NCBI GenBank assembly: GCA_048941265.1
Contig: JBHLNT010000001.1
Span: 21,974-85,973, forward strand
DNA from: Promethearchaeota archaeon
GTDB taxonomy: Archaea > Asgardarchaeota > Lokiarchaeia > Sigyniarchaeales > SOKP01
Reading direction: 5' to 3'
Length of the DNA: 64,000 bases
This document shows positions 16,156-49,923 of this stretch, one piece after another. The position numbers were made by a program, and so were the translations under genes. Under the pieces are notes generated by a model. That model did no database searches and was not told the origin of the DNA. It saw only the letters and a program-made list of their open reading frames with translations. Positions within the stretch are counted from its first letter, which is position 1; every line of letters begins with the position of its first letter.

Positions 16156-16209
16156 TTAAATTTTAAATAAATATTAAAAGCAAACAAATAAATAATTGAG
16201 CAGAAAATT

Positions 16210-25877: not shown

Positions 25878-27098
25878 ATGGAAAAAAATTTCCAAAAAAG
25901 ATATTATTTAATATTTTTCTCTACAATTCTTGGACCACTTACAACAAATTCATTAGTTCCAATCTTTGAGGATTTAAGACTTAATTTTGGTTTAAATTCA
26001 ATTGCTTTAGTTTCGCTAGCAATTTCATTTTATATTCTTCCCTTCGCTGTTTTCCAATTATTTGCGGGAACTTTTTCTGATATTGTTGATAAAAAAATTG
26101 TTTTAATAATAGGATTTATTATTTTTATATTAGGTTTGCTATTAAGTTTAATAGCCGTTTTAATTAAAGTGTTCTATTTATTTCTCTTTGGGTTTTTAAT
26201 CCAAGGAATTGGTTTTTCTTTTATCAATCCTACAATTTTGGCAATATTGAGTATAATTTCTCCTGAAGATAAAAAGGGGATAAATATGGGAATTTATAAC
26301 TCTTCATCAGGATTAGGTGTAAGTCTAGGAGCTCTTTTATCTGGATTTCTTGCTAATAATTTTAAGAGCGGTTGGGTTCTATTATTTATAATTAATCCCA
26401 TCATAGCTTTCTTAGCGTTAATATTATTATTAATAGCATTAAAAAAATGCGAACCTCTAATTTGTAGAACTTTTGAGACAACAATAAAACATTCTGCAAA
26501 TGATAAACCTTCTAAACTCTTTGCTACTTTTCAACAATTAAAAGATAATTTAAAGCTACCCATCCTTTTATTAGGTACTGCGGGATTCATCTGCTTTTTT
26601 ATAGTTATAACATTGACGAATACTTTAAATGAACAATTACGGATTTCATTATCTGGTTTAAGTGAACAAGAAGTCATTTTTTATGTGAGTTTGATTTTAA
26701 CAATAAACGGATTGATATCTGTGCTCTTATCTCCTATAACTGGTTTAATGTTAAAAAAAATTAATCCAAATATAATGCTAGGTATAGGTTTTTTACTTAT
26801 GTTTACAATGATTTTTATGCCTTATGGTACTTCCATAACTGATTTTATGGTTATTAGTTTCATAACGTACATTGGTTCAGCATTTGTTTGGCCTGCGTTA
26901 TTTAAAATTTCGATGAATATAAATCCTGAGGCAGAGGGTACAAATTCTGCCATAATAAATAGCTTAAGATTCATAGGTTATTCTTTAGTAGGCCCATTTT
27001 ACTTATTCTTTGGAATTCCTATTATCTATTTTTGGGTGATTAGTCTTAATTTTGTAGCAATTATCGTAGTTATCATGTTAAGCAAATTGAAAGTTTAG
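25878..27098 (+). CDS. MFS transporter
   Basis: About 12 hydrophobic helices and a motif-A-like GTFSDIVDKK between TM2 and TM3. Confidence 0.75.
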   Translation: MEKNFQKRYYLIFFSTILGPLTTNSLVPIFEDLRLNFGLNSIALVSLAISFYILPFAVFQLFAGTFSDIVDKKIVLIIGFIIFILGLLLSLIAVLIKVFYLFLFGFLIQGIGFSFINPTILAILSIISPEDKKGINMGIYNSSSGLGVSLGALLSGFLANNFKSGWVLLFIINPIIAFLALILLLIALKKCEPLICRTFETTIKHSANDKPSKLFATFQQLKDNLKLPILLLGTAGFICFFIVITLTNTLNEQLRISLSGLSEQEVIFYVSLILTINGLISVLLSPITGLMLKKINPNIMLGIGFLLMFTMIFMPYGTSITDFMVISFITYIGSAFVWPALFKISMNINPEAEGTNSAIINSLRFIGYSLVGPFYLFFGIPIIYFWVISLNFVAIIVVIMLSKLKV

Positions 27099-27105
27099 AA
27101 AAAGA

Positions 27106-28533
27106 TTATTTAATTTGGTTTTTACGTGCTTCTAAAATTTTAGCTCTTTCATTTAGGATATTTCTTACTGTTTTTGAATCCTCTGGATACCATTTCAACG
27201 TAAAGAGCCATACCATAATGCCCGGGATTATAAATACCAATAACATTAAAATCGTTAATTGGTAATTAGTTCCAGTCATAACTAATAATATTCCTACTAT
27301 AATTGCTCCCAAGCCCCACCCTATACTCTCAACCAGTTGATTCCAAGACACTATCTTGCCCTGGGCTTCAGGTAAATTTATTTCTTGTATAAGGGGAGCT
27401 TGATTTACCATGAATAAGCTCCCAATCACGTTTGATGTAAAAAACAGCATACCCATTACCCAAATTATTGGTAGAGAAAATAAATATGGAATGTCTTGTC
27501 CTTCAGATACAGAAAAATGAGGCAACGGAATAAAAAAGATAGCCACAAAACTTACCATTCCAAAACTTAGCGAGAAGATTATAAAATAAATTCTCCTAAT
27601 TGGATGTTCTTTGCAAACTTTATCAGAGAGCCAACCAAAAGCTAATTGCCCGATTAATCCTGCGGTTAATCCAAACACAATCATAAAGACCGCAGTAAAT
27701 ATAGGGGAAAGATTATGAGGAGGAGTTTGAATATAAGGCAAAATTAACAGAATGGCACTTCCCATTAGAATATTCGAAGAAATACCCTCTACTAGGGCAA
27801 CTATATTAGTTTTGCTGAACATGGTTTTTTTCATCATTTCACGATCAATTTGAAAATCATACTTAATATCATCATGTTTAAGAATCTGCATTAATTCTAT
27901 TTGTTGAGCACCTCTCTTTGGCTCATCCATATGTATGAAAAAGATGAATCCAGCAAGTACTATTAATACGCCTAAACCCCAAAAATATTCCCTCCAAAAA
28001 CCATATTGGACAAAAAAGGAAGCTACTAAAAATCCAAATGTCATAAATAATCCCATCATGAGCCCCATGACGCCAAAAAAACGTGATCTATGGGATTTTG
28101 GAACCAGATCATTTGAGAGAGAAGCAATTGAGGGCCACGATCCCCCTGCGAATAAAGCAAAAATGAATATAAAAAATAAGAAATAAAGCCATGTCTCAAA
28201 ACCTTTTCCCTCTTCCGCAAAACCCAACATAGCAATGCTAAAACCTCTAAAAATGGAAATCATAAAGAGGATTTTCGTACGACTAAATTTATCGATTAAC
28301 ATTCCAAAAAAAAGACCGCATAAAGAGGAAACCCAAAATAATACAGTTAACAATATCCCAATTTCTAAGGCATGATAGGGCTCATCTGGCCACATTATAA
28401 GAGATAATTGAACAATTAAGATGGTGAAACCAGCATAGGCCAAAGTTTGAAGACCTCCCAGGAGATAGAGAGACCAAAAAGTTCCATGTATTGAGAATTC
28501 TGAATTTGATGTATCAGCAGGTTCCTCTGGCAT
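27106..28533 (-). CDS. MFS transporter
   Basis: About 12-14 helices and a motif-A-like GMLIDKFSRTK. Confidence 0.75.
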   Translation of the reverse strand: MPEEPADTSNSEFSIHGTFWSLYLLGGLQTLAYAGFTILIVQLSLIMWPDEPYHALEIGILLTVLFWVSSLCGLFFGMLIDKFSRTKILFMISIFRGFSIAMLGFAEEGKGFETWLYFLFFIFIFALFAGGSWPSIASLSNDLVPKSHRSRFFGVMGLMMGLFMTFGFLVASFFVQYGFWREYFWGLGVLIVLAGFIFFIHMDEPKRGAQQIELMQILKHDDIKYDFQIDREMMKKTMFSKTNIVALVEGISSNILMGSAILLILPYIQTPPHNLSPIFTAVFMIVFGLTAGLIGQLAFGWLSDKVCKEHPIRRIYFIIFSLSFGMVSFVAIFFIPLPHFSVSEGQDIPYLFSLPIIWVMGMLFFTSNVIGSLFMVNQAPLIQEINLPEAQGKIVSWNQLVESIGWGLGAIIVGILLVMTGTNYQLTILMLLVFIIPGIMVWLFTLKWYPEDSKTVRNILNERAKILEARKNQIK

Positions 28534-28756
28534 AATTTTTTTATACCATATTATCTTTTTAGTTTTAAACTGTAGAATGAGATTTCAAATTTTAAGATAT
28601 TGAAAAGTAAATATGAGAATTAACCATTATTATAAGATAAGACTTAAGAAAAAAATTTGAGATTTAAAATACGATGTAATTTTTTGATACTTATTTTTAT
28701 AAACCTTGATCTCGTTTATATTTACAATGTCTTATAAATAAATTAAATTTAATAAA

Positions 28757-30160
28757 ATGAGCGTATCTCAAAAACAAAATGTAGGTTCTGATGAATCTAG
28801 ATATTCTTCTAAAATTCATTTATCATATAGCCTTGGGAGCTTTTTCGACACTTTTTACGTGGCAAGTTTTACTGTCCGCGTTATATATTTTTACGAGAAT
28901 GAACTCTTCTTATCCATTGTATTGATAGGTACTGCTTTTATTATATATGGTTTTTGGAATATGATCAACGATCCTTTGATTGGGTGGTTTGCAGATAAAG
29001 AAACGCGATTTACTAAGCGATGGGGTCGGAGATTTCCATGGTTTTTTATAGGCGCTATAAGTATAAATTTTGTTTATATTTTTATATATACAGTTCCTGT
29101 TAACGATCAATTAGGAATGTTTATATGGCTGCTGGTAATTATTTGTTTATTTGAATTATGTTATTCTCTTTGGCAAGTTAGTTGGCTTTCTCTCTATCCC
29201 GATAAGTTTCGCTCCCAGAAGGAACGAACGAAATTAGGAGCATTAACTACCATATTTGGTCAATTAGGGACAGTTATGGGAATTGTGATTCCTCCTTTAT
29301 TTATCATATATGGAAATGTCGAATCTTATATTTTTGCCGCGATAGCAGTAGCTATTATTTCGCTTATAATCGCCTTGCTCATTATTCCAGGTATGCACGA
29401 GGATGAAGATATAATCGCACGCGAACTTAAAAACATCCAAGAACAAAAGAAAGAAGAGGAATCGTACTTACAAATAGTAAAATTCTCTATGAAGGAAAAA
29501 AATTTTGTCGCTTATGTTCTATGGTATCTTTGCTATTATATGCTTCCCTTATTGATGCTCTCATCACTTTCTTATTGGGTCATTTATATTGTAAAATATA
29601 GAAATCCAATGATAGAAACATTATTAGCGGGGATTTTTATGATAGGTGCCTTAGTATCAGTTCCGTTATGGTTAAAAATGGGGAGAAAGTTTGGTATACG
29701 AAAGATTTACATTTATGGGAGTTTGATGGCTTCAATTTGCTTTATTCCGCTGATATTCGTTTCTGATCTAACTCTCACTCTTACATTTCTTTTTCTAATT
29801 GGATTTTTCTATGGATCTTGTTGGACATTATTATATCCCGGATTCTCTGAGGTAATGGATGAGCTTGTGGTCAAAAGTGGAGAACGTAGAGAAGGTGCTT
29901 ACACAGGAATTAGAACCTTTATTGGACGGTTGTCCTTTGTGCTACAAGCGGTCATTTTCTCAATAGTTCATACCACCACAAAATTCGAAGCTGGAGCAGA
30001 AACCCAAAAACCATTAGCATTATGGGGAATACGAATTATCATGGTAATAGCTCCAATGGTATTTCTTTTCATTGGTTTCCTTCTTATGGCAATCTTCTAT
30101 GATCTTACCCCCGAAAAAGTGAACGCTAATAAAGCTCTATTGAAAGAAAAGAATTTTTAA
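28757..30160 (+). CDS. GPH-family (glycoside-pentoside-hexuronide:cation symporter, MelB/YicJ-like) transporter
   Basis: NMINDPLIGWFADKETRFTKRWGRRFPWFF matches the DPxxGxxxD..T..RWGR.RPW signature of the GPH family. Paralog of 59378-60838. Confidence 0.8.
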   Translation: MSVSQKQNVGSDESRYSSKIHLSYSLGSFFDTFYVASFTVRVIYFYENELFLSIVLIGTAFIIYGFWNMINDPLIGWFADKETRFTKRWGRRFPWFFIGAISINFVYIFIYTVPVNDQLGMFIWLLVIICLFELCYSLWQVSWLSLYPDKFRSQKERTKLGALTTIFGQLGTVMGIVIPPLFIIYGNVESYIFAAIAVAIISLIIALLIIPGMHEDEDIIARELKNIQEQKKEEESYLQIVKFSMKEKNFVAYVLWYLCYYMLPLLMLSSLSYWVIYIVKYRNPMIETLLAGIFMIGALVSVPLWLKMGRKFGIRKIYIYGSLMASICFIPLIFVSDLTLTLTFLFLIGFFYGSCWTLLYPGFSEVMDELVVKSGERREGAYTGIRTFIGRLSFVLQAVIFSIVHTTTKFEAGAETQKPLALWGIRIIMVIAPMVFLFIGFLLMAIFYDLTPEKVNANKALLKEKNF

Positions 30161-30426: not shown

Positions 30427-31398
30427 ATGGGCCATTTAACAAGGCAAATAGATATTGCAAATGAGTTAAAGAAGCTCAATTATAACATAATATTTCTCTC
30501 AAAAAACTATCCAGAAGGAATATTATTACTTGAAGAAAGTCAGTTTGAAATTATAAAATTATCAACAGAATACCAAACGATAAATGATTCAATTCAAGAA
30601 ATAAACGAGGTATTAAATTCCTATAATAAAATCTTTGATTTTATCATATTAGATCTTTTTGAAGATTTTGATAATCAAGAATATTTAAACAATTTAAAGC
30701 TCTTTTGTAGCAAATTGTTTGTTTTAAGCGATGAGCCAAAACAGTTCTATATTCAAGTGAATGCTGTTTTCGCTTTTAGCGAAAATCAAGAGTCATTTAA
30801 CTATAATAATTTGAGAACTAAATACTATACTGGTCTAAAATACTTTCCTTTACACTCTAAATTCCAGGAAGTACCAAAGAAAAAAGTCAATAAAAAAGTT
30901 AGTAAAGTTCTTATTACTTTTGGTGGAAGTGATCCTAATAATTTTTCAGGCAAATTGGTAAGTTCCTTAAAGCAACTTGATCTAAATGTAATATATACGC
31001 TAATCCTAGGTGCTGGATATTCGAAAGAGAATTATCATGATATTATGAGGGAAAAATTTGATAATCTCATAATTAAAACGAATATAAAAAATATGAACGA
31101 GTATTTAATAGAAACGGATATTTGTATTTGCTCAGCAGGAAATACAGTAATAGAAGCATTGGTATGCGGAGTCCCTTGTATTGTCCTTCCTCAAACTAAA
31201 TTAGAAAGTGAACGCGCTAAAGCTTTAGAAAAAAAACAATTGATTATTAATAAGGGATTGGAATTTACTACTAAGAGATTAATTACTGTAATTAATAACC
31301 TACTTTCTGATTATTCACTAAGGAAAAAATTGAGCAAAAATGCTCAAAATTATTTAGATGGAAAGGGCATTAAAAGGATTGTAAATATAATTTCTTAA
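30427..31398 (+). CDS. GT28/PseG-like glycosyltransferase or nucleotide-sugar hydrolase
   Basis: GMGHLTRQ at the annotated N-terminus, and C-terminal ICSAGNTVIEALVCGVPCIVLP (MurG/PseG C-domain-like). The conserved ALIRADGSNKIGMGH motif extends upstream of the ATG, in frame back to 30370, so the true start is probably upstream and non-ATG. Confidence 0.65.
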   Translation: MGHLTRQIDIANELKKLNYNIIFLSKNYPEGILLLEESQFEIIKLSTEYQTINDSIQEINEVLNSYNKIFDFIILDLFEDFDNQEYLNNLKLFCSKLFVLSDEPKQFYIQVNAVFAFSENQESFNYNNLRTKYYTGLKYFPLHSKFQEVPKKKVNKKVSKVLITFGGSDPNNFSGKLVSSLKQLDLNVIYTLILGAGYSKENYHDIMREKFDNLIIKTNIKNMNEYLIETDICICSAGNTVIEALVCGVPCIVLPQTKLESERAKALEKKQLIINKGLEFTTKRLITVINNLLSDYSLRKKLSKNAQNYLDGKGIKRIVNIIS

Positions 31399-31552: not shown

Positions 31553-31560
31553 TTTATATA
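31553..31560 (+). promoter_or_regulatory. candidate TATA box (TTTATATA) for a leaderless transcript starting near the ATG at 31581
   Basis: TTTATATA is centred ~25 nt upstream of the first ATG of the HAD/PlsC gene string, which is the archaeal TATA-to-TSS spacing. The AT-rich context makes this tentative. Confidence 0.3.
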
Positions 31561-31580: not shown

Positions 31581-32342
31581 ATGAAAAACGACCAGTTAAT
31601 AGAAAAACTCCGAAAACGGGAACTTAAAGCAGTAGTATTTGATTTCGATGGTACAATCTTAGATATTAAGAAACCTCTTGAAAAATCTATTGAAGAAGTC
31701 TTTACTGAGAAAGGTATTGCTTCTGACTTAGAATCATCTGTACTTGAAATTGGTGCTGTGCTCGAATCTATACAAGGATACCCTATTCCTAAAATTTTAC
31801 TGCAATCATATGACATTTTCCAACAGATAACAACGCTAGAAAAATTAACTTTCTTAAAAAAATTTAGAGTTGCCTTGAAAATTTTCGCTAAATATCAAAC
31901 TTATTCTAAAGAGGCTGAATTATTCCCCGGTATAAAACCACTATTAGAATATCTAAATAAAGGTGCAGACCTTTATATTATCTCTCATAATCAAACAAAT
32001 AGTGTTAGAGAACACCTTCAAAAAGAAGAAATTGAAAAGTATTTCAAAGGAGTATATGGAGCTGATGAATTGCCTGCATTAAAACCAAGTCCTGATGCCC
32101 TTTTACCTGTCATAGAGCAATACAAAAATACCAGCAGTAAGAAATTTTTGATCTTAGGTGATATGCCATCTGATATTGAATCTGGTCAAGAAGCAGGAGT
32201 TCATACCATTGGAATCGCTAGTGGAATCAGTAAGAAGGAGATACTGGAGAATTGTAATCCCGATTTATTATTCGATTCAATTATTGAATTGAATGAATTA
32301 CTTGGTATAAATAATGGTCGTAGTTCGGATTCTAAAGTTTAA
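31581..32342 (+). CDS. HAD-superfamily phosphatase (phosphoglycolate phosphatase-like)
   Basis: Motif I VVFDFDGTILD, motif II YIISHN and motif IV ILGDMPSDIESG. Confidence 0.8.
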   Translation: MKNDQLIEKLRKRELKAVVFDFDGTILDIKKPLEKSIEEVFTEKGIASDLESSVLEIGAVLESIQGYPIPKILLQSYDIFQQITTLEKLTFLKKFRVALKIFAKYQTYSKEAELFPGIKPLLEYLNKGADLYIISHNQTNSVREHLQKEEIEKYFKGVYGADELPALKPSPDALLPVIEQYKNTSSKKFLILGDMPSDIESGQEAGVHTIGIASGISKKEILENCNPDLLFDSIIELNELLGINNGRSSDSKV

Positions 32343-32375
32343 AATTAAAAATTATAAAAAATAAAACATAAAAGG

Positions 32376-34070
32376 TTGATGAATATGGAACTTGAAAAAT
32401 CAGATATAAAACCAACAAAGAAAGAAAAAATTGGTAAAGAACAAGTAGATTATGATGTAGTGGAACAAGAACTAGAGCTTAAGTATGAAAAAACGTCTCA
32501 TGATGCGATGTATAAAGTTTTAAAATATAATCCTATCGACTGGTTAAATGATAAGTACCGAAAATTTATTGATATGCATCAATTAACTGAGATTGAGGGT
32601 CAATTACAATGGTGGGCTGCATATATTTACGTTAAGGAAATCCTAAGGTTACTTTTCGATCATAAAGTAGAAAATCCCTATAAGACTTTATTTCCTGAAT
32701 ATGGCCCTGGAATCATCATCTCAAATCATGAAAGCCATTTTGATCCATTTTTTATTGGAGCTACATGTCATAGACGTATTCGATGGATGAGTAAAATTGA
32801 AAACTTTAAGACACCAATTGTAAGAACTTTGTTTACAAATTTAGGTGCTTTTAGACTTGATAGAGATAACCCTGAACCAGGTTGGGAGATGGCAAAAGAA
32901 GTGATTGATAATGGAGGATGGGTTGGAATCTTTCCAGAAGGCACTCGCACAGAAGATGGGTCTCTTGGTGAATTTCATACTGGTGCGGTAAGGCTAGCAA
33001 TAGAAAAGAAAGTACCTATTGTTCCGACATGTGTAATCGGTTCAAGAGCAGCACTACCGAAAGGCAAATTGGTTTTAAAACCAGCTCGTGTAATTACTCG
33101 TGCAGGACTTCCGATTTCCTATGATCAATATAACATTGATACTGTATCATATCAAGATATTAGAAGACTTTCAGATGAATTACGACAGGAAGTTATTGAT
33201 TTAATGGAAGGTAATTACCACATTGAAGGTGAAGAAAAGGTTCAACAGCTTTCCATAGGGGAACCTAAGGATATGGCAGAAAAGCCAAAAGGTAATCCTG
33301 TTATGAAATTCTTTAAAAAACTCTCAGCACATTTCTTACAATTATGGGATGATTCTTGGTATGCCCTCTTAAAATCTTTAGAAGTCTATGGTTTAAAAGA
33401 TTACTTTGGATCATTCATATATAATTTATCGGGTAATATCGTTCATAGCCTCTGCAACCTTATGCTTCCATATAAAGTCATTGACTACGACAAATATATT
33501 CCCAAAAAAGCTGAAACTGGTGCCCTTATATGCTCAAATCATAATTCAGAATGGGATGTAATAATACTAGCAACAAGTTTTCAGCAATGGGGTGGTCATT
33601 ATATCTATCAACAATCAAAAGAATCACTCTTTAGATATCCTGTTGTAAACGCTTGGGTAAGGTCTTGTAGAGCATTTCCACTTAAAAGAGGTGAGCACGA
33701 TGTTGGTTCTTATAATTATGCTTTAGAACGCTTAAAAGAGGGAAAATGGATAGTAATCTATCCAGAAGGCACAACTAATACGGGAGGCGGGAAATTATTA
33801 GAAGGACACACTGGTGCTATGCGTTTAGCTATAGAAGCAAAAGTTCCAATTTATTTAGTTGGAATCACTGGAACTGAAGATGTCTATCCAAAACGGGCCA
33901 AAATGCTTAATTTCAATAAAGGAGTTATATTGAAAGCAGGAGAACCATTTATGGAGCATCAAAATTACTGGGACAAACCTATGCCTAGCTATAGTGAATT
34001 AAGGAATCTTACCACAAAAATGATGGCAAGAATAAAAGACTTGCTTATGTATGACGATAAACGAGCATAA
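32376..34070 (+). CDS. fusion of two PlsC-type (1-acyl-sn-glycerol-3-phosphate/lysophospholipid) acyltransferase domains
   Basis: Domain 1 has ISNHESHFDPFF (HX4D) and IFPEGTRTEDG. Domain 2 has CSNHNSEWDVI (HX4D) and IYPEGTTNTGG. Length is 564 aa. Confidence 0.85.
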   Translation: MMNMELEKSDIKPTKKEKIGKEQVDYDVVEQELELKYEKTSHDAMYKVLKYNPIDWLNDKYRKFIDMHQLTEIEGQLQWWAAYIYVKEILRLLFDHKVENPYKTLFPEYGPGIIISNHESHFDPFFIGATCHRRIRWMSKIENFKTPIVRTLFTNLGAFRLDRDNPEPGWEMAKEVIDNGGWVGIFPEGTRTEDGSLGEFHTGAVRLAIEKKVPIVPTCVIGSRAALPKGKLVLKPARVITRAGLPISYDQYNIDTVSYQDIRRLSDELRQEVIDLMEGNYHIEGEEKVQQLSIGEPKDMAEKPKGNPVMKFFKKLSAHFLQLWDDSWYALLKSLEVYGLKDYFGSFIYNLSGNIVHSLCNLMLPYKVIDYDKYIPKKAETGALICSNHNSEWDVIILATSFQQWGGHYIYQQSKESLFRYPVVNAWVRSCRAFPLKRGEHDVGSYNYALERLKEGKWIVIYPEGTTNTGGGKLLEGHTGAMRLAIEAKVPIYLVGITGTEDVYPKRAKMLNFNKGVILKAGEPFMEHQNYWDKPMPSYSELRNLTTKMMARIKDLLMYDDKRA

Positions 34071-34089
34071 GAAGCGAGAGGTTTAACTG

Positions 34090-35169
34090 GTGGAAGCGAC
34101 GGAAAAATCGTCAGGTACAAAAATCAAGGTTGGTATACCTAGAGCACTTCATTTTTATAGGTACTTTCCTTTTTGGAAAAAACTTCTTGAAGAATTAGAT
34201 GTGGAAATTATATTAACACCTAACACTAACAAGAAGATTGTAGAGGAAGGTGTAACTCATGGGTTTGGTGAGTTATGTATACCTGTAAAAATTTATTATG
34301 GACATGTAATGAAATTAATACGGGAACATCCCGATTTAGATTTCTTATTTGTACCTCGATATGTTTCAGAAGTAAAAGAAGCATACTTTTGTCCTAAATT
34401 TCTGTCGTTACCAGATGTCATAAAAATTTTGCCGAACGCTCCAAAACTTTTGACTTTTGAAGTTAATATAAAAGAATTTCCAATTGCCACAGCAGCCGCT
34501 GAACTTGCTAAACAATTAGGAAAAAGCCAATCTAAAGGATTAGATGCATATAAGAAAGCGCAAGAATATTTTGATGAGTATCATAAATTTTTAAGGGAAG
34601 GTGCCCCTGTCAATCATGCACTACGATTAGTAGAATATAACCGTCCTTTCACTTTGCCAAAAAAGAAACGTAAGGGCGATATTAAGTTCTTGTTATTAGG
34701 ACATGCATATAATATTTTTGACACATTTATTAATCTAGATTTTCAAAAAAAATTACAAGATCAAAATGTTGAGGTTTTAACTATTGAAAATCTGCCAGAA
34801 TCAATATTCAAGGTACCAGTTATCGTGAATAGGCGTTTGAGAAACTATTGGAGACATGAGGAGGAAATCATGCAATCAATTAGGTACTTTATGACGAAAG
34901 GACGAAAAGAAATCGATGGAGTGGTTTTTCTTATTAGTTTTGCTTGTGGACCCGACAGTCTCATTTCCGAGTTAATAATGAGAGATATGAAAGTCGTAGG
35001 GCTTCCATTTTTAGAGATAATAATGGATGAACATTCTGGTGAGGCGGGTTTGCTTACAAGAGTTGAAAGTTTCGTAGAGATGGTAAGAAGGAAGAAGCAA
35101 AAACTCTCAGAATTAGAAAACAAGCAAAAACTTGGAGTTTTAGAAGAGATTGATACTTCATTTGCCTAG
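34090..35169 (+). CDS. BCR/HAD-family 'CoA enzyme activase' accessory domain protein (DUF2229-like, part 1)
   Basis: KVGIPRALHFYRYFPFWKKLLEELDVEIILTPNTNKKIVEEG...LCIPVKIYYGH...FVPRYVS...YFCPKF...SFACGPDS matches, from memory, the uncharacterised domain found C-terminal to BcrAD/BadFG ATPase domains in large putative CoA-substrate-specific enzyme activases. GTG start with GAGAGG 8 nt upstream. Confidence 0.6.
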   Translation: MEATEKSSGTKIKVGIPRALHFYRYFPFWKKLLEELDVEIILTPNTNKKIVEEGVTHGFGELCIPVKIYYGHVMKLIREHPDLDFLFVPRYVSEVKEAYFCPKFLSLPDVIKILPNAPKLLTFEVNIKEFPIATAAAELAKQLGKSQSKGLDAYKKAQEYFDEYHKFLREGAPVNHALRLVEYNRPFTLPKKKRKGDIKFLLLGHAYNIFDTFINLDFQKKLQDQNVEVLTIENLPESIFKVPVIVNRRLRNYWRHEEEIMQSIRYFMTKGRKEIDGVVFLISFACGPDSLISELIMRDMKVVGLPFLEIIMDEHSGEAGLLTRVESFVEMVRRKKQKLSELENKQKLGVLEEIDTSFA

Positions 35170-35182
35170 GAGGTATTAAAAA

Positions 35183-36367
35183 ATGTTAATTTCCTTTCCA
35201 AATATGGGCCCAAACTGGGTAGCATTCAAATCTTTATTCGAGTCTTTGGATTTAGATGTCATCGTACCTGACCCCACAAACCGAGAAGCGATTAAAGTAG
35301 GTGTTAAATATAGCCCAGAATTCGTATGTTTCCCATTTAAGGCCACCCTCGGAGATTTTAAAAATGCATTGGATAAAGGTGCTGATACTCTCGTGATGGC
35401 AATTGATTGCGGACCATGTCGCTTTGGCTTCTATGCTTCTGTTCAAGAGAGACTTTTGAGGGATATGGGTTATGATGATTTTACATTAATTCCCTTAGAT
35501 CAAGCAGACTTACTCAATTTTAAATGGGTAAAAGCTCTTGAAGAAATTTCAGGAATGCAAGGTTTAGTTAAATATCCTAAATTTGTAAAGGCTGTCATCA
35601 TATTTTTAAAAAAAGCTAAATTGTTAGATGATATTCAGACTGCAGAAGGTCTTTTCAGGGCTTATGAACGGAATCAAGGAGATACTACTCGTACTGTAAA
35701 AAATTTATTAAATTATCTTGATCAAACCAATTCCATTTCTGAATTACGTAAATTTCGAAAGGTAATTTTAGATTTATTTAGTCGGATTGATATTGATAAA
35801 AATATTAGTCCTTTGAGAGTAGGGCTTTCAGGTGAGATTCATATAAGTTTAGAACCATATGTTAATCTAGATATTCGGAGAAAATTGGGTGAAATGGCGG
35901 TTGAGATCCATCAATCTCTAAGTCTATATGATTGGGTAGTCCATAAATTTCACTTAAATTATCACAGAAAATGGCTTGAACATCTTGCCCGACCGCATGT
36001 ACCGATGGATATAGGCGGAGAATGTGTCTGGGTATTAGGAGAATATATAGATAAAGGCAAGGCATCCTTCGATGGCTTCGTTCATGAATATCCGTTTACG
36101 TGCATGCCGGAAGTTGTAGCCCGGACGATTATTACTAATAAGCTTAAGAAAATATATGATTTACCGGTATTATTTTTCTCCTTCGATGAACAGAGTGGTC
36201 TTGAGGGATTTCGTACCCGTCTTGAAGCGTTTTGCGACCTCATGCATTCCCGACGTGATCAAGAAATAAAAAATAATCCCGAATTTTCGGCAATAGGAAA
36301 GAAGATTTATCCACATTTTGGAAATCATTTTTATGATGAATGTTATCAAATAATTAAAGCTTCATAG
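35183..36367 (+). CDS. BCR/HAD-family 2-hydroxyacyl-CoA-dehydratase-like / DUF2229-like protein (part 2)
   Basis: SFPNMGPNWVAFKSLFESLDLDVIVPDPTNREAIKVGVKYSPEFVCFPFK...GADTLVMAIDCGPCRFGFY shows the same family pattern as part 1. A strong SD (AGGAGGT) lies 8 nt upstream. Confidence 0.6.
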   Translation: MLISFPNMGPNWVAFKSLFESLDLDVIVPDPTNREAIKVGVKYSPEFVCFPFKATLGDFKNALDKGADTLVMAIDCGPCRFGFYASVQERLLRDMGYDDFTLIPLDQADLLNFKWVKALEEISGMQGLVKYPKFVKAVIIFLKKAKLLDDIQTAEGLFRAYERNQGDTTRTVKNLLNYLDQTNSISELRKFRKVILDLFSRIDIDKNISPLRVGLSGEIHISLEPYVNLDIRRKLGEMAVEIHQSLSLYDWVVHKFHLNYHRKWLEHLARPHVPMDIGGECVWVLGEYIDKGKASFDGFVHEYPFTCMPEVVARTIITNKLKKIYDLPVLFFSFDEQSGLEGFRTRLEAFCDLMHSRRDQEIKNNPEFSAIGKKIYPHFGNHFYDECYQIIKAS

Positions 36368-36381
36368 AGGATATATGGAAG

Positions 36382-37404
36382 ATGGTACAAGTTTCAGATA
36401 AAATTATTAAAGACGATGGTAAAAAAGACGCATTTTTAGGTATAGATGTAGGGTCAGTATCCCTTAAATTCGTGTTAATGGATAGAGATGGTAATGTGCT
36501 TACTTCAGTTTTTCTCAGAAATCGTGGTTCTCCTATTGATTCCGTTAAAGATGGAATGTCAAAATTGAGGGAGCAAATAGAAGCAGATGATAATTTACAA
36601 GGATATGCAATTCGTGCATGTGGAACTACTGGATCTGCGAGATATTTAACTAAAGCGGTTGTAGGAGGCGACATTGCAAAAACAGAGATCATTGCCCACG
36701 CAGTAGGGGCTCAATCAGAATATCCGGATGTACGCACAATTTTAGAGATTGGAGGGCAAGATTCTAAAATAATTATTCTTCGTGATGGAATCATAGTGGA
36801 TTTTGCTATGAATTCTGTTTGTGCCGCAGGTACCGGCTCATTCCTTGACCACCAAGCGTCGAGATTAGATCTACCCATCGAAGAATTTGGTGATTGGGCG
36901 GTAAAATCGAAAAATCCTTTATCAATCGCGGGCAGGTGTACTGTTTTTGCCGAATCAGATATGATTCATAAGCAAAACGCAGGGTATTCTCGAGAAGATA
37001 TTATTGCGGGATTATGTGATTCATTAGTACGAAATTATCTAAATAATTTAGCTAAAGGAAAAGAATTAGAAGAACCCGTTGTCTTTCAAGGGGGAGTATC
37101 CTTTAATAAGGGTATTGTTCAAGCCTTTGAAAGACATTTAAACTGCAAAGTTGTAGTCCCAAAATATAATGTACTGATGGGAGCTCTTGGAATGGCAATT
37201 CTTGTTAGAGACCATTTCTTGCGTAATGAGACTGAAACTGCTTTTAGAGGGCTTGAAGTAGCAGAAATTAAATTTGTAACCTCTGCTTTTAATTGTGGGG
37301 ATTGTCCCAATAATTGTGAAATTATCCAGGTAAAAATGCCCGAATTGGGCAATGAAGTAATAGCCCGCTGGGGCAGCAGATGTGGAAAATGGGAGGTGTT
37401 TTAA
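36382..37404 (+). CDS. BcrAD/BadFG/HgdC-type ATPase (radical-enzyme 'archerase' activator) with extra C-terminal Cys cluster
   Basis: LGIDVGSVSLKFVLMD, CGTTGSAR and EIGGQDSKIIIL. The two [4Fe-4S]-ligand contexts are NSVCAAGTGSFLD and GRCTVFAESDMI, followed by VFQGGVSFNKG. The C-terminus has CGDCPNNCE...RCGKW. Confidence 0.85.
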   Translation: MVQVSDKIIKDDGKKDAFLGIDVGSVSLKFVLMDRDGNVLTSVFLRNRGSPIDSVKDGMSKLREQIEADDNLQGYAIRACGTTGSARYLTKAVVGGDIAKTEIIAHAVGAQSEYPDVRTILEIGGQDSKIIILRDGIIVDFAMNSVCAAGTGSFLDHQASRLDLPIEEFGDWAVKSKNPLSIAGRCTVFAESDMIHKQNAGYSREDIIAGLCDSLVRNYLNNLAKGKELEEPVVFQGGVSFNKGIVQAFERHLNCKVVVPKYNVLMGALGMAILVRDHFLRNETETAFRGLEVAEIKFVTSAFNCGDCPNNCEIIQVKMPELGNEVIARWGSRCGKWEVF

Positions 37405-37613
37405 AAACGTCCAAACTTTTAAAAGATTTTTTAGAATTAGGAAAAGAGTTAGGAAAGGAAATTTTTGAGACGGCTAGCCATAGGGCTAAGCTTTCAACAA
37501 TTTTTGATTTATTTACAGAAAAAGTTATACCCTCTTTCGTTTCCGAAAAGGAACTGAAAGAATATTATGAAAAAAGAATGGAAGAAGTAAATGATTTTAT
37601 TATTAAATTATAA
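37380..37613 (+). CDS. small hypothetical helical protein
   Basis: 77-aa ORF overlapping the activase 3' end by 25 nt, with amphipathic K/E/L-rich helices. Its position inside the operon supports expression. Confidence 0.4.
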   Translation: MWKMGGVLKTSKLLKDFLELGKELGKEIFETASHRAKLSTIFDLFTEKVIPSFVSEKELKEYYEKRMEEVNDFIIKL

Positions 37614-37628
37614 GAGGAGGAAAAAAAT

Positions 37629-38318
37629 ATGGCTCAAAATGTAGCAATATCGGAAGAAGAAAAACCAAAATTAAATAAAAAACAATTACAGGAGGATGCT
37701 TTATACGGTCTAGCTAAAGCAGTAGGAGGTGCCGTATTAAAGAATTTTGCGGGGTTAAAACTCGAAGGGGAAGAAAATATCCCTTATAGAGGAAGAGCAA
37801 TCTTAACAACTATAAGTAAAAATGTAATACGTGATATGCTAATTTTATCACAATTGACAGGCAGAAAAATCCATTTCATGCTACCAGCGAAATTGATGAA
37901 ACATCAAGTTGCGGGTCCAATATTTAAATCTCTTGGGATGATTCGAGGTACAGAGAGTAAAGATGATACTGAACCGATTGATAAAGTATTCGAAATCATA
38001 AATGAAAAAGGGGATTTAGTTGCTATGACCCCGGAAGCAAAATATGATCGAGATATACAAGTCAAATCCGTGGCAGGTATAATTAAATTCGCTGTAGCTG
38101 CTAATGCTCCAATAATTCCAATCGCAGTGACTAAAGAAAAGGCAAAATTATTTAATTTGATAACTATCGATGGTATAAAGGTAAAGGTTGGTAAGCCTAT
38201 TCCTGTTTCAAAGAATTTAAGTCGAGAAAAATACCGCGATCAGAGATATGAATTAGCTGAGGACATAGTGAACATTATCGATTCTCTAAAATATACGCCA
38301 GAACAAGATGAGGACTAA
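37629..38318 (+). CDS. PlsC-like acyltransferase-fold protein with degenerate catalytic motifs
   Basis: The position equivalent to NHxSxxD reads ISKNVIRD (His to Lys). The PEGTR block reads TPEAKYDRD. The fold-typical PIIPIAV block is retained. SD GAGGAGG lies 8 nt upstream. Confidence 0.6.
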   Translation: MAQNVAISEEEKPKLNKKQLQEDALYGLAKAVGGAVLKNFAGLKLEGEENIPYRGRAILTTISKNVIRDMLILSQLTGRKIHFMLPAKLMKHQVAGPIFKSLGMIRGTESKDDTEPIDKVFEIINEKGDLVAMTPEAKYDRDIQVKSVAGIIKFAVAANAPIIPIAVTKEKAKLFNLITIDGIKVKVGKPIPVSKNLSREKYRDQRYELAEDIVNIIDSLKYTPEQDED

Positions 38319-38351
38319 TAATTAGAAAATTAGATAAAAAATAAAAAAGGA

Positions 38352-38627
38352 GTGAAAAAAGATATGGAAAATCAAGATAATCCAAATATAGAAAAAGCTA
38401 AAATTGATTTACCGGAATATACCAAAAAATTAGAAGAAAAGGCAAAAGAGGCTCTAAACCCGGATAAGATGAAAGAGATGATTTCAGATTTGAAAGTAGA
38501 CAATGTTGTAGGGGACCTTTTCTATGAATCTGTAAAGCTATTCTTTGATATTGGATTCGATCTTGCTGATAAGCTAAATCTTGATTTAATTCAAGATTTT
38601 ATCAAAAAAGATAATGAGAAAAAATAA
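38352..38627 (+). CDS. small hypothetical acidic/helical protein
   Basis: Last ORF of the operon. The SD AAGGAG at 38348-38353 favours the ATG at 38364 over the GTG at 38352. Confidence 0.45.
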   Translation: MKKDMENQDNPNIEKAKIDLPEYTKKLEEKAKEALNPDKMKEMISDLKVDNVVGDLFYESVKLFFDIGFDLADKLNLDLIQDFIKKDNEKK

Positions 38628-38635
38628 ATAAAAAA

Positions 38636-38687
38636 TTTTTTTGGTATTATTTTTTTATCTTAAACTGGACCTTTAGGTTTTTTTTTT
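38636..38687. terminator. oligo-T/A tracts between convergent genes (candidate bidirectional termination zone)
   Basis: T7, T7 and T10 runs lie within the 134-bp gap between the operon end (38627) and the convergent gene end (38762). Confidence 0.3.
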
Positions 38688-38761: not shown

Positions 38762-39250
38762 TTAATACCTTGTTCTTGTTGACTGAATTCGAAGTTTGGC
38801 TTTAGTTTTCTCATCCTTGTCCTGTAAAATAATGTAACTCGTTTTTTGGGGTAGTTTTATTTCAATTTTCTGTTCGGCGATTGTTTGGTCTTTCTTCAAA
38901 TGGTCTTGTTCTCTTAAAATAAGATTTAAATTAACAACTAGCGGTTTTCCTTTTCTAACTGTTTTAAATTCACTCCAAATCGTCATGTCTGCTCGACTTG
39001 TGAATTCTTGATTTCTCTGTAATTTAATTACCCCCTTATGAGGGAATCGAGATTTTAGCATTTTATCACCATCAATCCGTAGATAAAACTCTCCTACTCT
39101 GCCAAGAGAATCATAATCTTTAAGAGTTTTCAGAGACATAAGATCTACACTTATCTGGAATCTTTCTTTTTCTTTTCCGACATTATCTTGGGTAAATGTT
39201 TCTCCTTTTGCATGAGTTTTTTTCCCTTTCACATAAACTCTTCTTGCCAT
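38762..39250 (-). CDS. hypothetical protein
   Basis: 162-aa basic ORF that looks beta-rich. No recognisable motif. Confidence 0.5.
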   Translation of the reverse strand: MARRVYVKGKKTHAKGETFTQDNVGKEKERFQISVDLMSLKTLKDYDSLGRVGEFYLRIDGDKMLKSRFPHKGVIKLQRNQEFTSRADMTIWSEFKTVRKGKPLVVNLNLILREQDHLKKDQTIAEQKIEIKLPQKTSYIILQDKDEKTKAKLRIQSTRTRY

Positions 39251-40312: not shown

Positions 40313-41275
40313 TTATTTATAATTTATGATAACTACACCTATTAGCACGATTATTGCCCCGATAATATTCAATAGGAGTATGGTCTCCGTTCTTTGAAAT
40401 AGAAAGGAAAATATTAGTGTAATAAATGGCTCTATATATAAAAATGATGCGACCTTTGATGATTGAAGCTTTTTTTGGGAGTAATTCCAGGTATAATATC
40501 CAAATACAAAGCAAATTAATCCTAAATAAATTCCGCATAGTAAAAGTATAATATTTAGGAAATTAATAAGAAAAATATAAAGCTGATTGCTTATTACAAC
40601 AAAAATGAACAGCTCTAAGCAACCCAAATAGCAAATATATTTTAATATTTTAAAATCTGATTGAATATCATGAAATTTTTCTAAGTGCTTAATAATGGTT
40701 GAATAAGTTGCCCACAATATAGGTGTAAGTAAAATGAATACATATCCAATAAATGATGGTGATGCAGGGGTAAATTTTGATATATCACCTCCCGTAATTA
40801 AGAAATATGAGCCTACTGAGGCCAATAGAAAACCAACAATTTTTAATTTGTTTAATTTTTCTTGAAAAAAAATTAGTGAAAATACCGCAATTATTACTGG
40901 TGAAACAAGGCAATCATATAATGCGGGAATTGAAGGTCCGATTAACTCAACGGCAGAATATAAAAAAAAGAGATAAAGTGAGATTCCTGAAAAACTCGCT
41001 AATACAATTAAAATCCAAAAATTTAACGATGGCATAGAGTCTATTTCCTGAACTTGAATTTGGGGTATCTTGCATTTTTTTCTCAATTTAAGATAGATAT
41101 CTAAAATTAAGAATGATAACGAGGCTACAAATAAACGATATAATGCTACTGATAATGGCGGGATGTATTCAACTGCTATATGAACTATTATAAATGAGAT
41201 ACCCCAAAAGGTAATCATAAGAATTAATAAAACATAAACGAATATAACCTTAAAATTAAAAGAATTAGGATTCAT
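40313..41275 (-). CDS. EamA/DMT-family transporter (tandem paralog 2)
   Basis: Ten hydrophobic helices. Shares the blocks SVALYRLFVASLSFLILDIYLK, FQEKLNKLKIVGF and ASFLYIEPF with the upstream paralog. Confidence 0.75.
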   Translation of the reverse strand: MNPNSFNFKVIFVYVLLILMITFWGISFIIVHIAVEYIPPLSVALYRLFVASLSFLILDIYLKLRKKCKIPQIQVQEIDSMPSLNFWILIVLASFSGISLYLFFLYSAVELIGPSIPALYDCLVSPVIIAVFSLIFFQEKLNKLKIVGFLLASVGSYFLITGGDISKFTPASPSFIGYVFILLTPILWATYSTIIKHLEKFHDIQSDFKILKYICYLGCLELFIFVVISNQLYIFLINFLNIILLLCGIYLGLICFVFGYYTWNYSQKKLQSSKVASFLYIEPFITLIFSFLFQRTETILLLNIIGAIIVLIGVVIINYK

Positions 41276-42200
41276 AATTAATAATTACTACCGCGATTAA
41301 AACGATTATACCTCCTATTATGTTCCAAACTACAATGACTTCACTTCTTTGAAGTATAAAGGAGAAGAATAGAGTTAAGAATGGTTCAACATAGAGAAAT
41401 GAAGCTACCTTAGCGGATTTTAAGTTTTTTTGCGAATATTGCCAAATATAATAACCAATAACATAGCATCCTACACCTAAATAAAGTGCACATAACAAAA
41501 TCAAAATATTAAAGAAATTTGAAATAAAAATGTATAATTCTCCATTAATTATGACTAATATAAATAACTCAATGGTGCCAAGATAAGCAGTATATTTTAA
41601 TAATTTAATGTTAGATTTTTTTCTCGTAATTTTTTTTGTAACTGTGGCATATACAGCCCACAATAATGGAGTTGAAAGAGCCAAAATATAGCCTATGAAG
41701 TTAGGAGATTGCGGAGTGAGATTTTCAATATTTCCCCCCGTAACCAAGAAAAAACCGCCAATTGAGGCAATAATAAAACCAGCTATTTTAAGACTAGTTA
41801 ATTTTTCATTAAAAAAAATTAAAGCTAATAAAGTAATAATAACCGGAGCTAACAAACACACAAATAAGGCTGGTAATGAGGGGCCAATCAAACTTATTGC
41901 AGTGTATTGAGCAAAAAAGAAGAGAGAAATACCAGCAAAGCTAGCTATTACAATTAAAGTCCAATCATTTTCATTGAATTTGACATTATCCTCTTTTTGT
42001 TGTTTATTATTTACTCCTTTTTTTTTATTAATTTTTAAGTAAATATCAATGATTAAAAACGATAATGATGCTACTATGAAGCGGTATAGTGCTATTGATA
42101 ATGGAGGAATGTAATCTAAAGCAATATCCGCGAGGATAAAAGAAAAACCCCAGATAACAATCATTAAAAGTAGTAGAATATAAATCAATAACATCGTCAA
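41265..42200 (-). CDS. EamA/DMT-family transporter (tandem paralog 1)
   Basis: Colinear with 40313-41275 (SIALYRFIVASLSFLIIDIYLK, FNEKLTSLKIAGF, ASFLYVEPF). An 11-nt overlap links the two genes. Confidence 0.75.
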   Translation of the reverse strand: MTMLLIYILLLLMIVIWGFSFILADIALDYIPPLSIALYRFIVASLSFLIIDIYLKINKKKGVNNKQQKEDNVKFNENDWTLIVIASFAGISLFFFAQYTAISLIGPSLPALFVCLLAPVIITLLALIFFNEKLTSLKIAGFIIASIGGFFLVTGGNIENLTPQSPNFIGYILALSTPLLWAVYATVTKKITRKKSNIKLLKYTAYLGTIELFILVIINGELYIFISNFFNILILLCALYLGVGCYVIGYYIWQYSQKNLKSAKVASFLYVEPFLTLFFSFILQRSEVIVVWNIIGGIIVLIAVVIINYES

Positions 42201-46107: not shown

Positions 46108-46155
46108 TTTTAGATACCTTAACTTTAATCTAAGATACCTTACTTTTGTACTTTT

Positions 46156-49768: not shown

Positions 49769-49923
49769 TACTTTTTCCCCTTTTAGTTTAAAATACTTCC
49801 AAATTCTAAGAATTCTAAAATTATTTTGATTTTTTTAAATTTTTGATTATGATTTAGAAGAAAAATTCAAAAAGAAAAAACTTTTTCTGTAGTTGATATT
49901 TGAAATTTTATCTTTTTCTAAAG

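Follow-up and report, generated by a model that had tools for sequence, protein, structure and literature searches.

A conserved Asgard archaeal operon in which PlsC-type acyltransferases are coupled to a split, predicted radical reductase of the DUF2229 family: a candidate ester-to-ether lipid system

Among the described systems with which the locus reported here can be compared are the ether-lipid enzymes PlsA/PlsR and Ger. In Clostridium perfringens, PlsA is composed of two activation domains followed by a reductase domain (Act1-Act2-Red1), and PlsR provides the second reductase component, Red2 (PMC12838417). Ger has the domain order BBDHDDH, in which PF01869 occurs twice and PF09989 once, together with short PF06050/PF09989 segments, and its BBD core is reported to be conserved in all alkyl-ether producers (PMC13159169). 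Under anoxic conditions, its substrates are sn-1 acyl esters and reportedly also those at sn-2 (PMC13159169, PMC13274423). PlsA and Ger are not yet separable by sequence, and activase-less PlsA homologues, whose role is unclear, have been noted (PMC13274423). In Asgard archaea, Ger homologues have been reported in Lokiarchaeota and Heimdallarchaeota, none of them characterised (Sahonero-Canavesi 2022, PMC13159169), and PlsC and PlsY have been published before (PMC6737245, PMC6431249). Here we describe an eight-gene locus, g1 to g8, at positions 31581-38627 of a 64,000-nucleotide stretch of contig JBHLNT010000001.1 from a Promethearchaeota archaeon (assembly GCA_048941265.1). This whole stretch is referred to as the window, and all positions are given in its numbering.

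The eight open reading frames (ORFs) are all on the forward strand and are tightly packed. In order, they encode a phosphatase (g1), a tandem PlsC-type acyltransferase (g2), the reductase proteins Red1 (g3) and Red2 (g4), an activator ATPase (Act, g5), a small protein (s77, g6), a degenerate PlsC (PlsCdeg, g7) and a second small protein (s91, g8). We propose, with a probability of about 0.4, that this operon specifies a self-contained route by which fatty-acyl esters would be made and then reductively converted to vinyl or alkyl ethers. Paralogy, conservation and synteny, as well as gene content, catalytic motifs and the fold of Red1, are shown here, and from them we infer its substrates, the order of its steps, the complex and the product.

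The argument for a functional unit starts from its conservation. One genome per GTDB species was scanned, which gave 110 loci, 80 of which were examined; synteny counts were made on these genome loci together with 79 metagenome loci anchored on Red2. At least 110 genomes, one per species, have retained the operon, with a reductase protein identity of ~80%, and some of the loci examined come from bins named as Odin-, Hod- and Borrarchaeota. The gene for g2 was found at most 600 bp 5' of Red1 in 69 of 74 Asgard loci, and a phosphatase gene was located 5' of Red1 in 49/59. Further along the operon, Red2 was followed by Act in 53 of 57 loci, Act by s77 in 37 of 43, and s77 by the dead PlsC in 33 of 38. 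It is Red2-Act, rather than the active acyltransferase, that s77 and the dead PlsC accompany. Median identities to the window proteins were 79-80% for Red1 and Act, 76% for Red2 and 53-64% for the phosphatase, g2, g7 and s77; judged by these values, the reductase is the slowest-evolving portion of the operon. The least conserved member is s91, with 28-93% identity in other loci. A first-pass annotation, made from the sequence alone, had named the loss of the acyltransferase linkage in related genomes as one of the observations that should count against its ester-to-ether reading. This linkage was retained in the counts given above, and it recurs in a paralogous operon.

The paralogous operon was found in Helarchaeota (SUPR01000040.1, L167 2451-11356), where the set of three acyltransferase domains, HAD phosphatase, Red1, Red2, Act and small protein is repeated. 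Its genes encode, in order, an 876-aa triple-PF01553 acyltransferase, a LarA-like protein, a 490-aa HAD protein whose C-terminal half is of no recognised kind, Red1'', Red2'', Act'' and a 63-aa protein. Identities to the window proteins were 44% for Red1'', 51% for Red2'' and 59% for Act'', and the 63-aa protein occupies the same position as s77, with which it shares 35% identity (E 5e-4). The third domain of the acyltransferase matched g7 (30% identity, E 2e-20) and likewise lacks the catalytic His; the dead PlsC is thus physically fused to the other acyltransferase domains in this operon. The LarA-like protein is a homologue of the nickel-pincer racemase, and it is pure speculation that a LarA-type enzyme could invert a 2-hydroxy centre, for instance C2 of glycerol phosphate. 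In a bootstrapped neighbour-joining (distance) tree rooted on Red2, the three Asgard groups with split reductase genes (the main group, an inserted paralogue described below and the Hel-type) were monophyletic with 82% bootstrap, apart from the Bacillota-type proteins. Since the Asgard split clade is monophyletic and the paralogous operon repeats the whole set, the coupling between acyltransferases, phosphatase and reductase is old and has been kept twice. This is the strongest argument that the three activities work together.

When compared with PlsA/PlsR (CPE1194/1195 in C. perfringens, single-chain in Enterococcus and others), the window system contains the same modules, namely HgdC-type activation, a DUF2229 Red1 and a divergent Red2, and an oxygen-sensitive chemistry of the benzoyl-CoA reductase/2-hydroxyacyl-CoA dehydratase (BCR/HAD) type would be common to both. 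It differs from PlsA/PlsR in being split into three genes, Red1-Red2-Act, with one activation domain instead of two, and in being embedded with its own acyltransferases, phosphatase, dead PlsC and small proteins. Ger (Thermotoga maritima Tmari_0479; Desulfatibacillum alkenivorans SHJ90043) resembles it in the DUF2229/HGD-D-tail arrangement (D-H, D-H) and in the BcrAD_BadFG domain, but is a single polypeptide built on the BBD core. This core, in which two PF01869 domains are fused to PF09989 in both PlsA and Ger, was not found in the window, where the single PF01869 domain is carried by a separate 340-aa protein.

Profile searches against Pfam and NCBIfam were judged against the curated cutoffs. 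Red1 matched PF09989 (DUF2229) with 156.7 bits, for a gathering score of 29.4, over profile positions 1-217 of 218, whereas Red2 matched with 37.3 bits over its N-terminal 60 residues only. Red2 is nevertheless related to Red1, as observed by BLASTP (20.6% identity, E 7e-11) and by hhalign (probability 99.7%). For the HGD-D family (PF06050), both proteins remained below the gathering score of 28.4 (Red1, 26.4 bits; Red2, 18.7 bits), and the similarity was limited to the C-terminal ~60 residues. The two middle proteins, which the first-pass annotation had described as DUF2229/2-hydroxyacyl-CoA-dehydratase-like, are therefore DUF2229 proteins by profile search, and not HGD-D or Bcr-type subunits.

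The AlphaFold2 model of Red1 (pLDDT 87.7) was compared with known structures by Foldseek. It matched HadC (3o3n_B, E 3.6e-11, TM 0.55), and the only significant full-length PDB matches were HadC, the double-cubane cluster protein DCCP, BzdN/O and MbdO/N, the last two pairs showing 11-13% identity to Red1 in the structural alignment. The model has the BCR/HAD catalytic-subunit fold. Three Cys residues of Red1 are invariant (Cys63, Cys101 and Cys286), and invariant Cys residues are present at equivalent places in Red2 (Cys49, Cys79 and Cys307). In Red1 they are predicted to form a three-Cys site that would hold a [4Fe-4S] cluster. Red2 is the predicted partner subunit of Red1, and since Red1-Red2 fusion proteins exist (e.g. 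P0130, 731 aa), the two proteins probably act as one enzyme.

Act was recognised as a BcrAD_BadFG protein (PF01869, 161 bits) and passed the TIGR00241 model with 194.5 bits for a cutoff of 125.4. Its PDB matches were 4EHT (5e-39), 9GAI (6e-36) and 1HUX (9e-34). Cys147 (in CAAGTG) and Cys186 (in CTVFAES) align with the cluster-ligand motifs of the HadI activator 4EHT, and this alignment agrees with the first-pass annotation of an HgdC/BcrAD-type ATPase with both [4Fe-4S] ligand contexts. The two residues are predicted to bridge the [4Fe-4S] cluster in the Act dimer. In addition, Act carries a C-terminal Cys4 module, CxxCxxxCE...WGxRCxKW (C305, C308, C312 and C334), and all six Cys residues, the two bridging ones and those of the module, are invariant. 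The activators HadI (4EHT), MbdQ and HgdC align to residues 19-284 of Act; HadI (276 aa) aligns to these residues only and ends before the Cys4 module. The module was compared among the window Act, the split activases of Bacillota and the Asgard PlsA-architecture proteins, and in this set it is common to the Bacillota split activases and to the linker between the second activase and DUF2229 in the Asgard PlsA-architecture fusions, where it follows the activation domain as it does in Act. The Cys4 module thus seems to link Act specifically to DUF2229-associated systems.

The acyltransferase g2 contains two PF01553 stretches (184 bits, 1.2e-54) and scored 157 bits with TIGR00530, the lysophosphatidic acid acyltransferase (LPAAT) subfamily model, for a cutoff of 102.95. 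Its sole match in the PDB was T. maritima PlsC (5KYM, 3e-13). Both HX4D dyads (H118..D123 and H389..D394) and both PEGT blocks were invariant in 69 orthologues, in line with the intact double PlsC first read from the sequence. The predicted function of g2 is the acylation of a glycerol-phosphate or lyso-lipid acceptor. It also matched the Aas acyltransferase domain at 3e-24 and, weakly, OlsA in NCBIfam. The double-PlsC gene is tandemly duplicated 5' of Red1 in L057 (1-3475), L126 (2737-6058) and L146 (26-2137).

The second PlsC-type protein, g7, matched PF01553 with 39.7 bits for a cutoff of 23 and TIGR00530 with 35 bits, below cutoff. In its motif TTIS[K/D]NxxRD, the position of the catalytic His is occupied by K or D in 13/13 orthologues, among which many other residues are invariant. 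By these motifs, g7 is a conserved pseudo-acyltransferase of the PlsC fold, as its first description as a degenerate PlsC had implied, and it is presumed to be a non-catalytic lipid-binding or scaffold subunit. The phosphatase g1 possesses motifs I-IV of its family (D21-F-D23-G-T25, S135, K168 and GD194xxxD198), all invariant in 55 sequences. Its top NCBIfam matches were phosphoglycolate-phosphatase-like and all below cutoffs, and it is predicted to be an active-looking HAD-IA phosphatase. For s77, which always lies between Act and g7, and for s91, Pfam and NCBIfam gave no match.

The properties of these proteins bear on the nature of the acceptor. Instead of a membrane glycerolipid, some soluble metabolite that bears a phosphate might be acylated by the PlsC-fold enzymes, or these might build a lipid for storage or of a secondary kind; the specialised acylated compound would later be modified by the radical enzyme. 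The lack of a predicted transmembrane helix in g1-g8 would fit such an acceptor, as would the variety of acceptors in the PlsC superfamily, the weak OlsA matches, the resemblance of g1 to small-molecule phosphatases and the published Asgard lipid data, which are isoprenoid only; three acyltransferase-type domains and a phosphatase may also recall a Kennedy-type neutral-lipid route. Yet the top curated model of g2 is the LPAAT subfamily, passed above cutoff, and its only PDB match is a bacterial PlsC. To our knowledge, PlsA and Ger are themselves devoid of membrane helices. We judge a non-membrane acceptor to be quite unlikely.

In the ester-to-ether route that we favour, the tandem PlsC g2 would make two acyl transfers, the donor probably being acyl-CoA, to an acceptor that may be glycerol 3-phosphate, glycerol 1-phosphate, a lyso-lipid or an archaeal mono-ether such as geranylgeranylglyceryl phosphate. 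The phosphatase g1 would strip a phosphate, its substrate being either the phosphatidate-type product or a precursor. Red1 and Red2 would form a BCR/HAD-type heterodimer with one three-Cys [4Fe-4S] cluster per subunit, into which the Act homodimer, with its bridging [4Fe-4S] cluster and its Cys4 module, would drive a low-potential electron by ATP hydrolysis. Red1/Red2 could then reduce the ester carbonyl by way of the ketyl radical that has been put forward for PlsA/PlsR and for Ger. It is probably s77 and the dead PlsC that hold the lipid substrate or hand it to the reductase, a role suggested by their adjacency to each other and by the fusion of the dead PlsC to active acyltransferases in the paralogous operon. 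Bacillota already make diacyl lipids, and for this reason a bare reductase cassette may suffice in those bacteria, whereas an archaeon would need its own acyltransferases in the operon.

The intergenic gaps are, in order, 33, 19, 13, 14, 15 and 33 nt, with a 25-nt overlap between g5 and g6 in place of a gap (16 nt if g6 starts at its second ATG, at 37389). Shine-Dalgarno strings were found 5' of 34090 (GAGAGG), 35183 (AGGAGGT), 36382 (AGAGGA) and 37629 (GAGGAGG), and 5' of the alternative ATG at 38364 (AAGGAG). The first-pass annotation had listed the same order of eight co-directional ORFs, gaps of the same range, the same overlap and the same internal Shine-Dalgarno sites; the coordinates were unchanged on re-reading and every quoted string was present in the sequence. 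A TATA-box-like element, TTTATATA, precedes g1 with a spacing to the first ATG that would suit a leaderless or short-leader archaeal transcript, and the oligo-T tracts 3' of g8 are a plausible archaeal transcription stop. With the tight spacing, the TTTATATA box and the oligo-T tracts, g1-g8 may be read as a single archaeal transcript. In a scan for sigma-70 promoters, the number of sites did not exceed that of shuffled sequence, which an archaeal host would lead one to expect, and Rfam and tRNA scans of the window gave no matches. The best 120 Red1 homologues, with 78-92% identity, all had Asgard names (metagenome-assembled genomes, MAGs, of Promethearchaeota, Lokiarchaeota and Thor-/Hermodarchaeota), which agrees with the Asgard-type host first supposed from the sequence. 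The features of the locus and of its surroundings are collected in Table 1.

Table 1. Genes, signals and neighbouring features, in window numbering unless a locus is named
Feature	Position	Strand	Match or basis
g1, HAD-IA phosphatase, 253 aa	31581..32342	+	Pfam HAD_2, 97 bits, 1.5e-27
g2, tandem PlsC-type acyltransferase, 564 aa	32376..34070	+	PF01553 x2, TIGR00530
g3, Red1, DUF2229 protein, 359 aa	34090..35169	+	PF09989, 8.6e-46
g4, Red2, divergent Red1 paralogue, 394 aa	35183..36367	+	PF09989, 2.9e-09
g5, Act, HgdC/HadI-type ATPase, 340 aa	36382..37404	+	PF01869, 3.8e-47
g6, s77, small helical protein, 77 aa (74 aa from second ATG)	37380..37613	+	no family match
g7, PlsCdeg, 229 aa	37629..38318	+	PF01553, 5e-10; catalytic His absent
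g8, s91, acidic helical protein, 91 aa (87 aa from ATG 38364)	38352..38627	+	no family match
TATA-box-like element TTTATATA	31553..31560	+	~20 nt 5' of first ATG, sequence read
Oligo-T tracts after g8	38636..38656	+	sequence read
PlsA/PlsR-architecture pair	L016 9369-13729; also L004, L007, L010, L015, L036, L047, L078		
582-aa and 557-aa ORFs, adjacent	14407-17883		no Pfam match at E<=1e-4
Three MFS genes, 5' of operon	25878-30160		two MFS_1, one GPH/MFS_2
MFS gene with weak OPA-family and LplT likeness	27106-28533	-	far below cutoffs
PseG-like GT28-type glycosyltransferase, directly 5' of operon	30427-31398		TIGR03590, 119 bits, below cutoff
162-aa ORF converging on operon end	38762-39250	-	no Pfam/NCBIfam family
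Two tandem EamA transporter genes, 3' of operon	40313-42200		
Two tandem ~910-aa Fer4 + FrhB/FdhB + Fer4_20 + Pyr_redox_2 fusions, with adjoining 918-aa Fer4/Pyr_redox_2/CCG protein	43387-52680	-	

Two further DUF2229 systems were encountered in Asgard loci. The first is a cassette inserted between Red1 and Red2 in L073 (3387-8181), and also in L028, L035, L106, L134, L147 and ~13-25 metagenome loci. It encodes an 812-aa protein in which a FAD_binding_4 flavoprotein of the VAO type is joined to a Red1-like DUF2229 domain, followed by Act' (53% identity to Act) and then by Red2' (41% identity to Red2). Alkyl-dihydroxyacetone phosphate synthase was considered for the flavoprotein part and rejected, as the match to AGPS was only 3e-5; its top PDB matches were cytokinin dehydrogenase (2e-19) and DprE1 (2e-6), and by these matches it is a generic VAO-type flavoprotein. 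The contig of L073 (DATKTW010000084.1) is labelled 'Candidatus Nanopelagicaceae bacterium', yet it holds a complete Asgard operon and is identical to the metagenome locus L106 across the paralogue cassette; it is probably mis-binned.

The second system is a pair of PlsA/PlsR architecture, which in eight or more genomes is the immediate neighbour of PlsC-Red1. This pair consists of a 985-aa Act-Act-DUF2229 protein and a ~466-aa partner without family match. The Asgard 985-aa proteins share 65-67% identity with proteins of Thermodesulfobacteriota, Deltaproteobacteria and Abyssobacteria, some of which are single chains of 1,435-1,444 aa. On account of this high identity, the fused proteins look like a recent interdomain transfer from bacteria to Asgard archaea. 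The published Asgard 'Ger homologues', which were retrieved with a relaxed BLAST criterion, may be these fused 985-aa proteins beside the operon.

Relatives of Red1 were also sought more widely. An exhaustive search of 1.84 billion representatives returned 2,726 Red1 relatives. The best 150 of these 2,726 were stand-alone proteins of ~260-380 aa, Red1-Red2 fusions of ~670-770 aa and a few shorter fragments; none of these 150 was a 1,400-aa fused protein. The relatives belong mainly to Bacillota. The Red1-Red2-Act cassettes of Bacillota (e.g. Natranaerobius thermophilus CP001034, L081) agree with the window genes in number, order and size and also have the three-Cys sites and the Cys4 tail of the activase, and their identities to the window proteins are 33-38% for Red1, 30-35% for Red2 and 52-55% for Act. 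They differ from the Asgard operon in that PlsC, phosphatase, s77 and dead-PlsC partners are missing and that their neighbours are unrelated housekeeping genes. These cassettes are probably the activase-less 'PlsA homologues' noted in PMC13274423. No usable information on plasmalogens of Natranaerobius was found in the literature.

The 2-hydroxyacyl-CoA dehydratases and class I benzoyl-CoA reductases were compared as well. Act is clearly homologous to their activators, and the Red1 model superposes on their subunits at TM ~0.5. In contrast to HgdAB/HadBC, there is no full-length HGD-D match, the similarity being confined to the C-terminal ~60 residues, and the CoA-transferase partner is absent from the operon and its orthologues, as is a ferredoxin neighbour. 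Class I benzoyl-CoA reductases are set apart by the single ATPase gene of the window system and by its lack of Dch, Had and Oah genes. A benzoyl-CoA reductase reading, to which the Asgard literature points, was rejected since Red1/Red2 are not of the BcrB/C type; the bcr cluster described from Hermodarchaeota belongs to another, rare type of locus that has Dch/Had/Oah genes (PMC8163825).

This wider family suggests another role for the radical module, which would act on the acyl donor: an acyl-CoA or other thioester would be dehydrated or reduced and then esterified by PlsC, and the products would be unusual ester lipids, not ethers. The matched BCR/HAD structures with a defined organic substrate (3o3n and 8s02) all bind a CoA thioester, and we know of no biochemically studied enzyme of the superfamily, apart from PlsA, Ger and DCCP, that does not use CoA thioesters. 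Several neighbours point in the same direction, namely a 3-hydroxyacyl-CoA dehydrogenase that adjoins Red1 in L015, the LarA-like 2-hydroxyacid racemase of the Helarchaeota operon, the VAO-type flavoprotein fused to the inserted paralogue, and the CoA-transferase III, acyl-CoA dehydrogenase and enoyl-CoA hydratase genes beside the bacterial relatives of the fused Asgard proteins. On the other side, the operon and its orthologues are without CoA-transferase, CoA-ligase or beta-oxidation genes, and Red1/Red2 fail the HGD-D model apart from their last ~60 residues. The linkage of the dead PlsC and s77 to Red2-Act would also be easier to explain if the reductase handles an acylated product. An action on the acyl donor thus appears unlikely to us.

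Several observations weigh against the ester-to-ether route that we prefer, and they are gathered here. No membrane helix is predicted in any of g1-g8, and no gene for a ferredoxin, for head-group transfer or for fatty-acid activation is found among them. Red1 shares only 23-25% identity with the D domain of the fused PlsA/PlsR-architecture proteins, although hhalign pairs the two with a probability of 99.9%, which is a point in favour of the route. In the tree, the split proteins also stand apart from the fused BBD clade, which itself has no firm place there; in both tree and alignments, fused PlsA-architecture proteins served as proxies for characterised PlsA, PlsR and Ger. The nearest relatives of the split clade are the functionally uncharacterised Bacillota cassettes, which are without lipid-gene neighbours. 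The bacterial relatives of the 985-aa proteins (L163, L164) adjoin genes for CoA-transferase, acyl-CoA dehydrogenase, enoyl-CoA hydratase and a glycyl-radical enzyme, so that membership of DUF2229 is by itself not proof of ether-lipid chemistry. The Red1|Red2 junction is often split by unrelated genes. Finally, Ca. P. syntrophicum, the one cultured Lokiarchaeon whose lipids were analysed in this way, gave phytane and biphytanes only upon ether cleavage (PMC7015854), a result that would bear on the operon if this strain carries it.

Two proposals of the first-pass annotation have to be adjusted accordingly. Its kinship with PlsAR/Ger stands in so far as the reductase belongs to DUF2229 and not to the HgdAB/Bcr families, but the window proteins fall in a separate split clade, outside the fused BBD clade. 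Its ester-to-ether interpretation is supported by the tight unit, the conserved linkage and the DUF2229 membership, but DUF2229 is broader than the ether-lipid enzymes.

The neighbourhood of the operon was also inspected. The three MFS genes lie 5' and the EamA genes 3' of it, and transporters recur beside it in other loci (two MFS_1 families in 21 loci each, one EamA family in 13). The MFS protein encoded at 27106-28533 weakly resembles the OPA family (PgtP/GlpT-type) and the LplT part of Aas fusions. These genes lead to a further explanation, in which lyso-lipids or glycerol phosphate would be imported via MFS proteins and re-acylated by PlsC, as in LplT-Aas, the reductase carrying out a different reduction, such as ester to aldehyde or alcohol, or having no action on the ester bond. 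The position of the three MFS genes directly 5', the recurrence of the MFS_1 and EamA families, the weak OPA/LplT likeness and the match of g2 to the Aas acyltransferase domain all suit such lipid salvage or remodelling. Bacterial PlsC and LplT-Aas are indeed comparable to g2 by the HX4D and PEGT motifs, the TIGR00530 score, the 5KYM similarity and the recurrent MFS neighbours, but g2 has two active domains fused, with a third, inactive copy in g7, and is without predicted membrane anchor or acyl-acyl carrier protein (ACP) synthetase domain. Moreover, the transporter matches are generic and far below curated cutoffs, the transporters are on the opposite strand or outside the operon, and an acyl-ACP or acyl-CoA synthetase partner is absent. 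The most conserved proteins, Red1 and Act (~80% identity), would be left without a role. Salvage therefore seems to us distinctly improbable.

Other neighbours are recorded here in their own right. The 162-aa ORF 3' of the operon recurs at this place in at least 19 other loci, with 61-94% identity. The PseG-like glycosyltransferase was considered as an operon partner and rejected, since it is beside the operon in no other locus. The two tandem ~910-aa fusions, which combine an F420-hydrogenase beta-like (FrhB/FdhB) domain with Fer4, Fer4_20 and Pyr_redox_2 domains, are adjoined by a 918-aa Fer4/Pyr_redox_2/CCG (HdrD-like) protein; lying ~5 kb away from the operon, these proteins may form a flavin-based machinery for low-potential electrons.

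Depending on the lineage, the Red1|Red2 junction is intact, or holds unrelated genes, or holds one of the two further DUF2229 systems. L078 and L136 are collinear except for an indel at the junction, and Red2-Act-s77-PlsCdeg is found there ~7 kb past Red1. Many independent MAG contigs stop 0.2-1.9 kb after Red1 (e.g. L002, L003, L006, L008, L013 and L014), inserts at the junction include a 2-oxoacid dehydrogenase E1, a Ras-like GTPase, a PAS histidine kinase and a 2,719-aa protein, and partial duplicates of Red1 or Red2 are present in L035, L045 and L051. Either rearrangements or assembly breaks are concentrated at this place. Among junction inserts and recurrent neighbours no lipid genes were found; the genes seen encode E1 dehydrogenase, Ras-like GTPase, histidine kinase, GNAT, TrmO, B12-binding protein, methyltransferase and transporters.

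In a full-text literature search, no description was found of the operon, of the split architecture, of a pseudo-acyltransferase subunit or of the paralogous Helarchaeota operon. Both the coupling in one operon and the splitting of the reductase seem to be new. The statement of the first-pass annotation that no archaeal example is characterised still holds, but archaeal Ger homologues had already been reported (PMC13159169).

How eukaryotes, with fatty-acyl lipids, arose from an archaeal host with isoprenoid ether lipids is a long-standing open question. The scattered Asgard sightings of acyltransferases and of Ger homologues are now joined as one operon, which bears on this lipid divide, and the compact set of five to eight genes is suited to anaerobic expression in E. 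coli and standard lipidomics. It is conceivable, although we remain doubtful, that most of the Asgard lineages sampled (Loki/Promethearchaeia, Thor, Hermod, Odin, Hod and Borr, with Hel via the paralogue) possess an old, strongly conserved and self-sufficient pathway in which fatty-acyl glycerolipids are made and then turned into vinyl or alkyl ethers by a split radical reductase of the PlsA/Ger type. If this were true, archaeal relatives of eukaryotes could produce, beside their isoprenoid lipids, hybrids that combine chains of bacterial type with ether bonds. If the product is an ether lipid, the widespread Red1-Red2-Act cassettes of Bacillota would gain a function as well. If the product is different, the locus would still define a new, acyltransferase-coupled branch of the ATP-driven radical enzymes.

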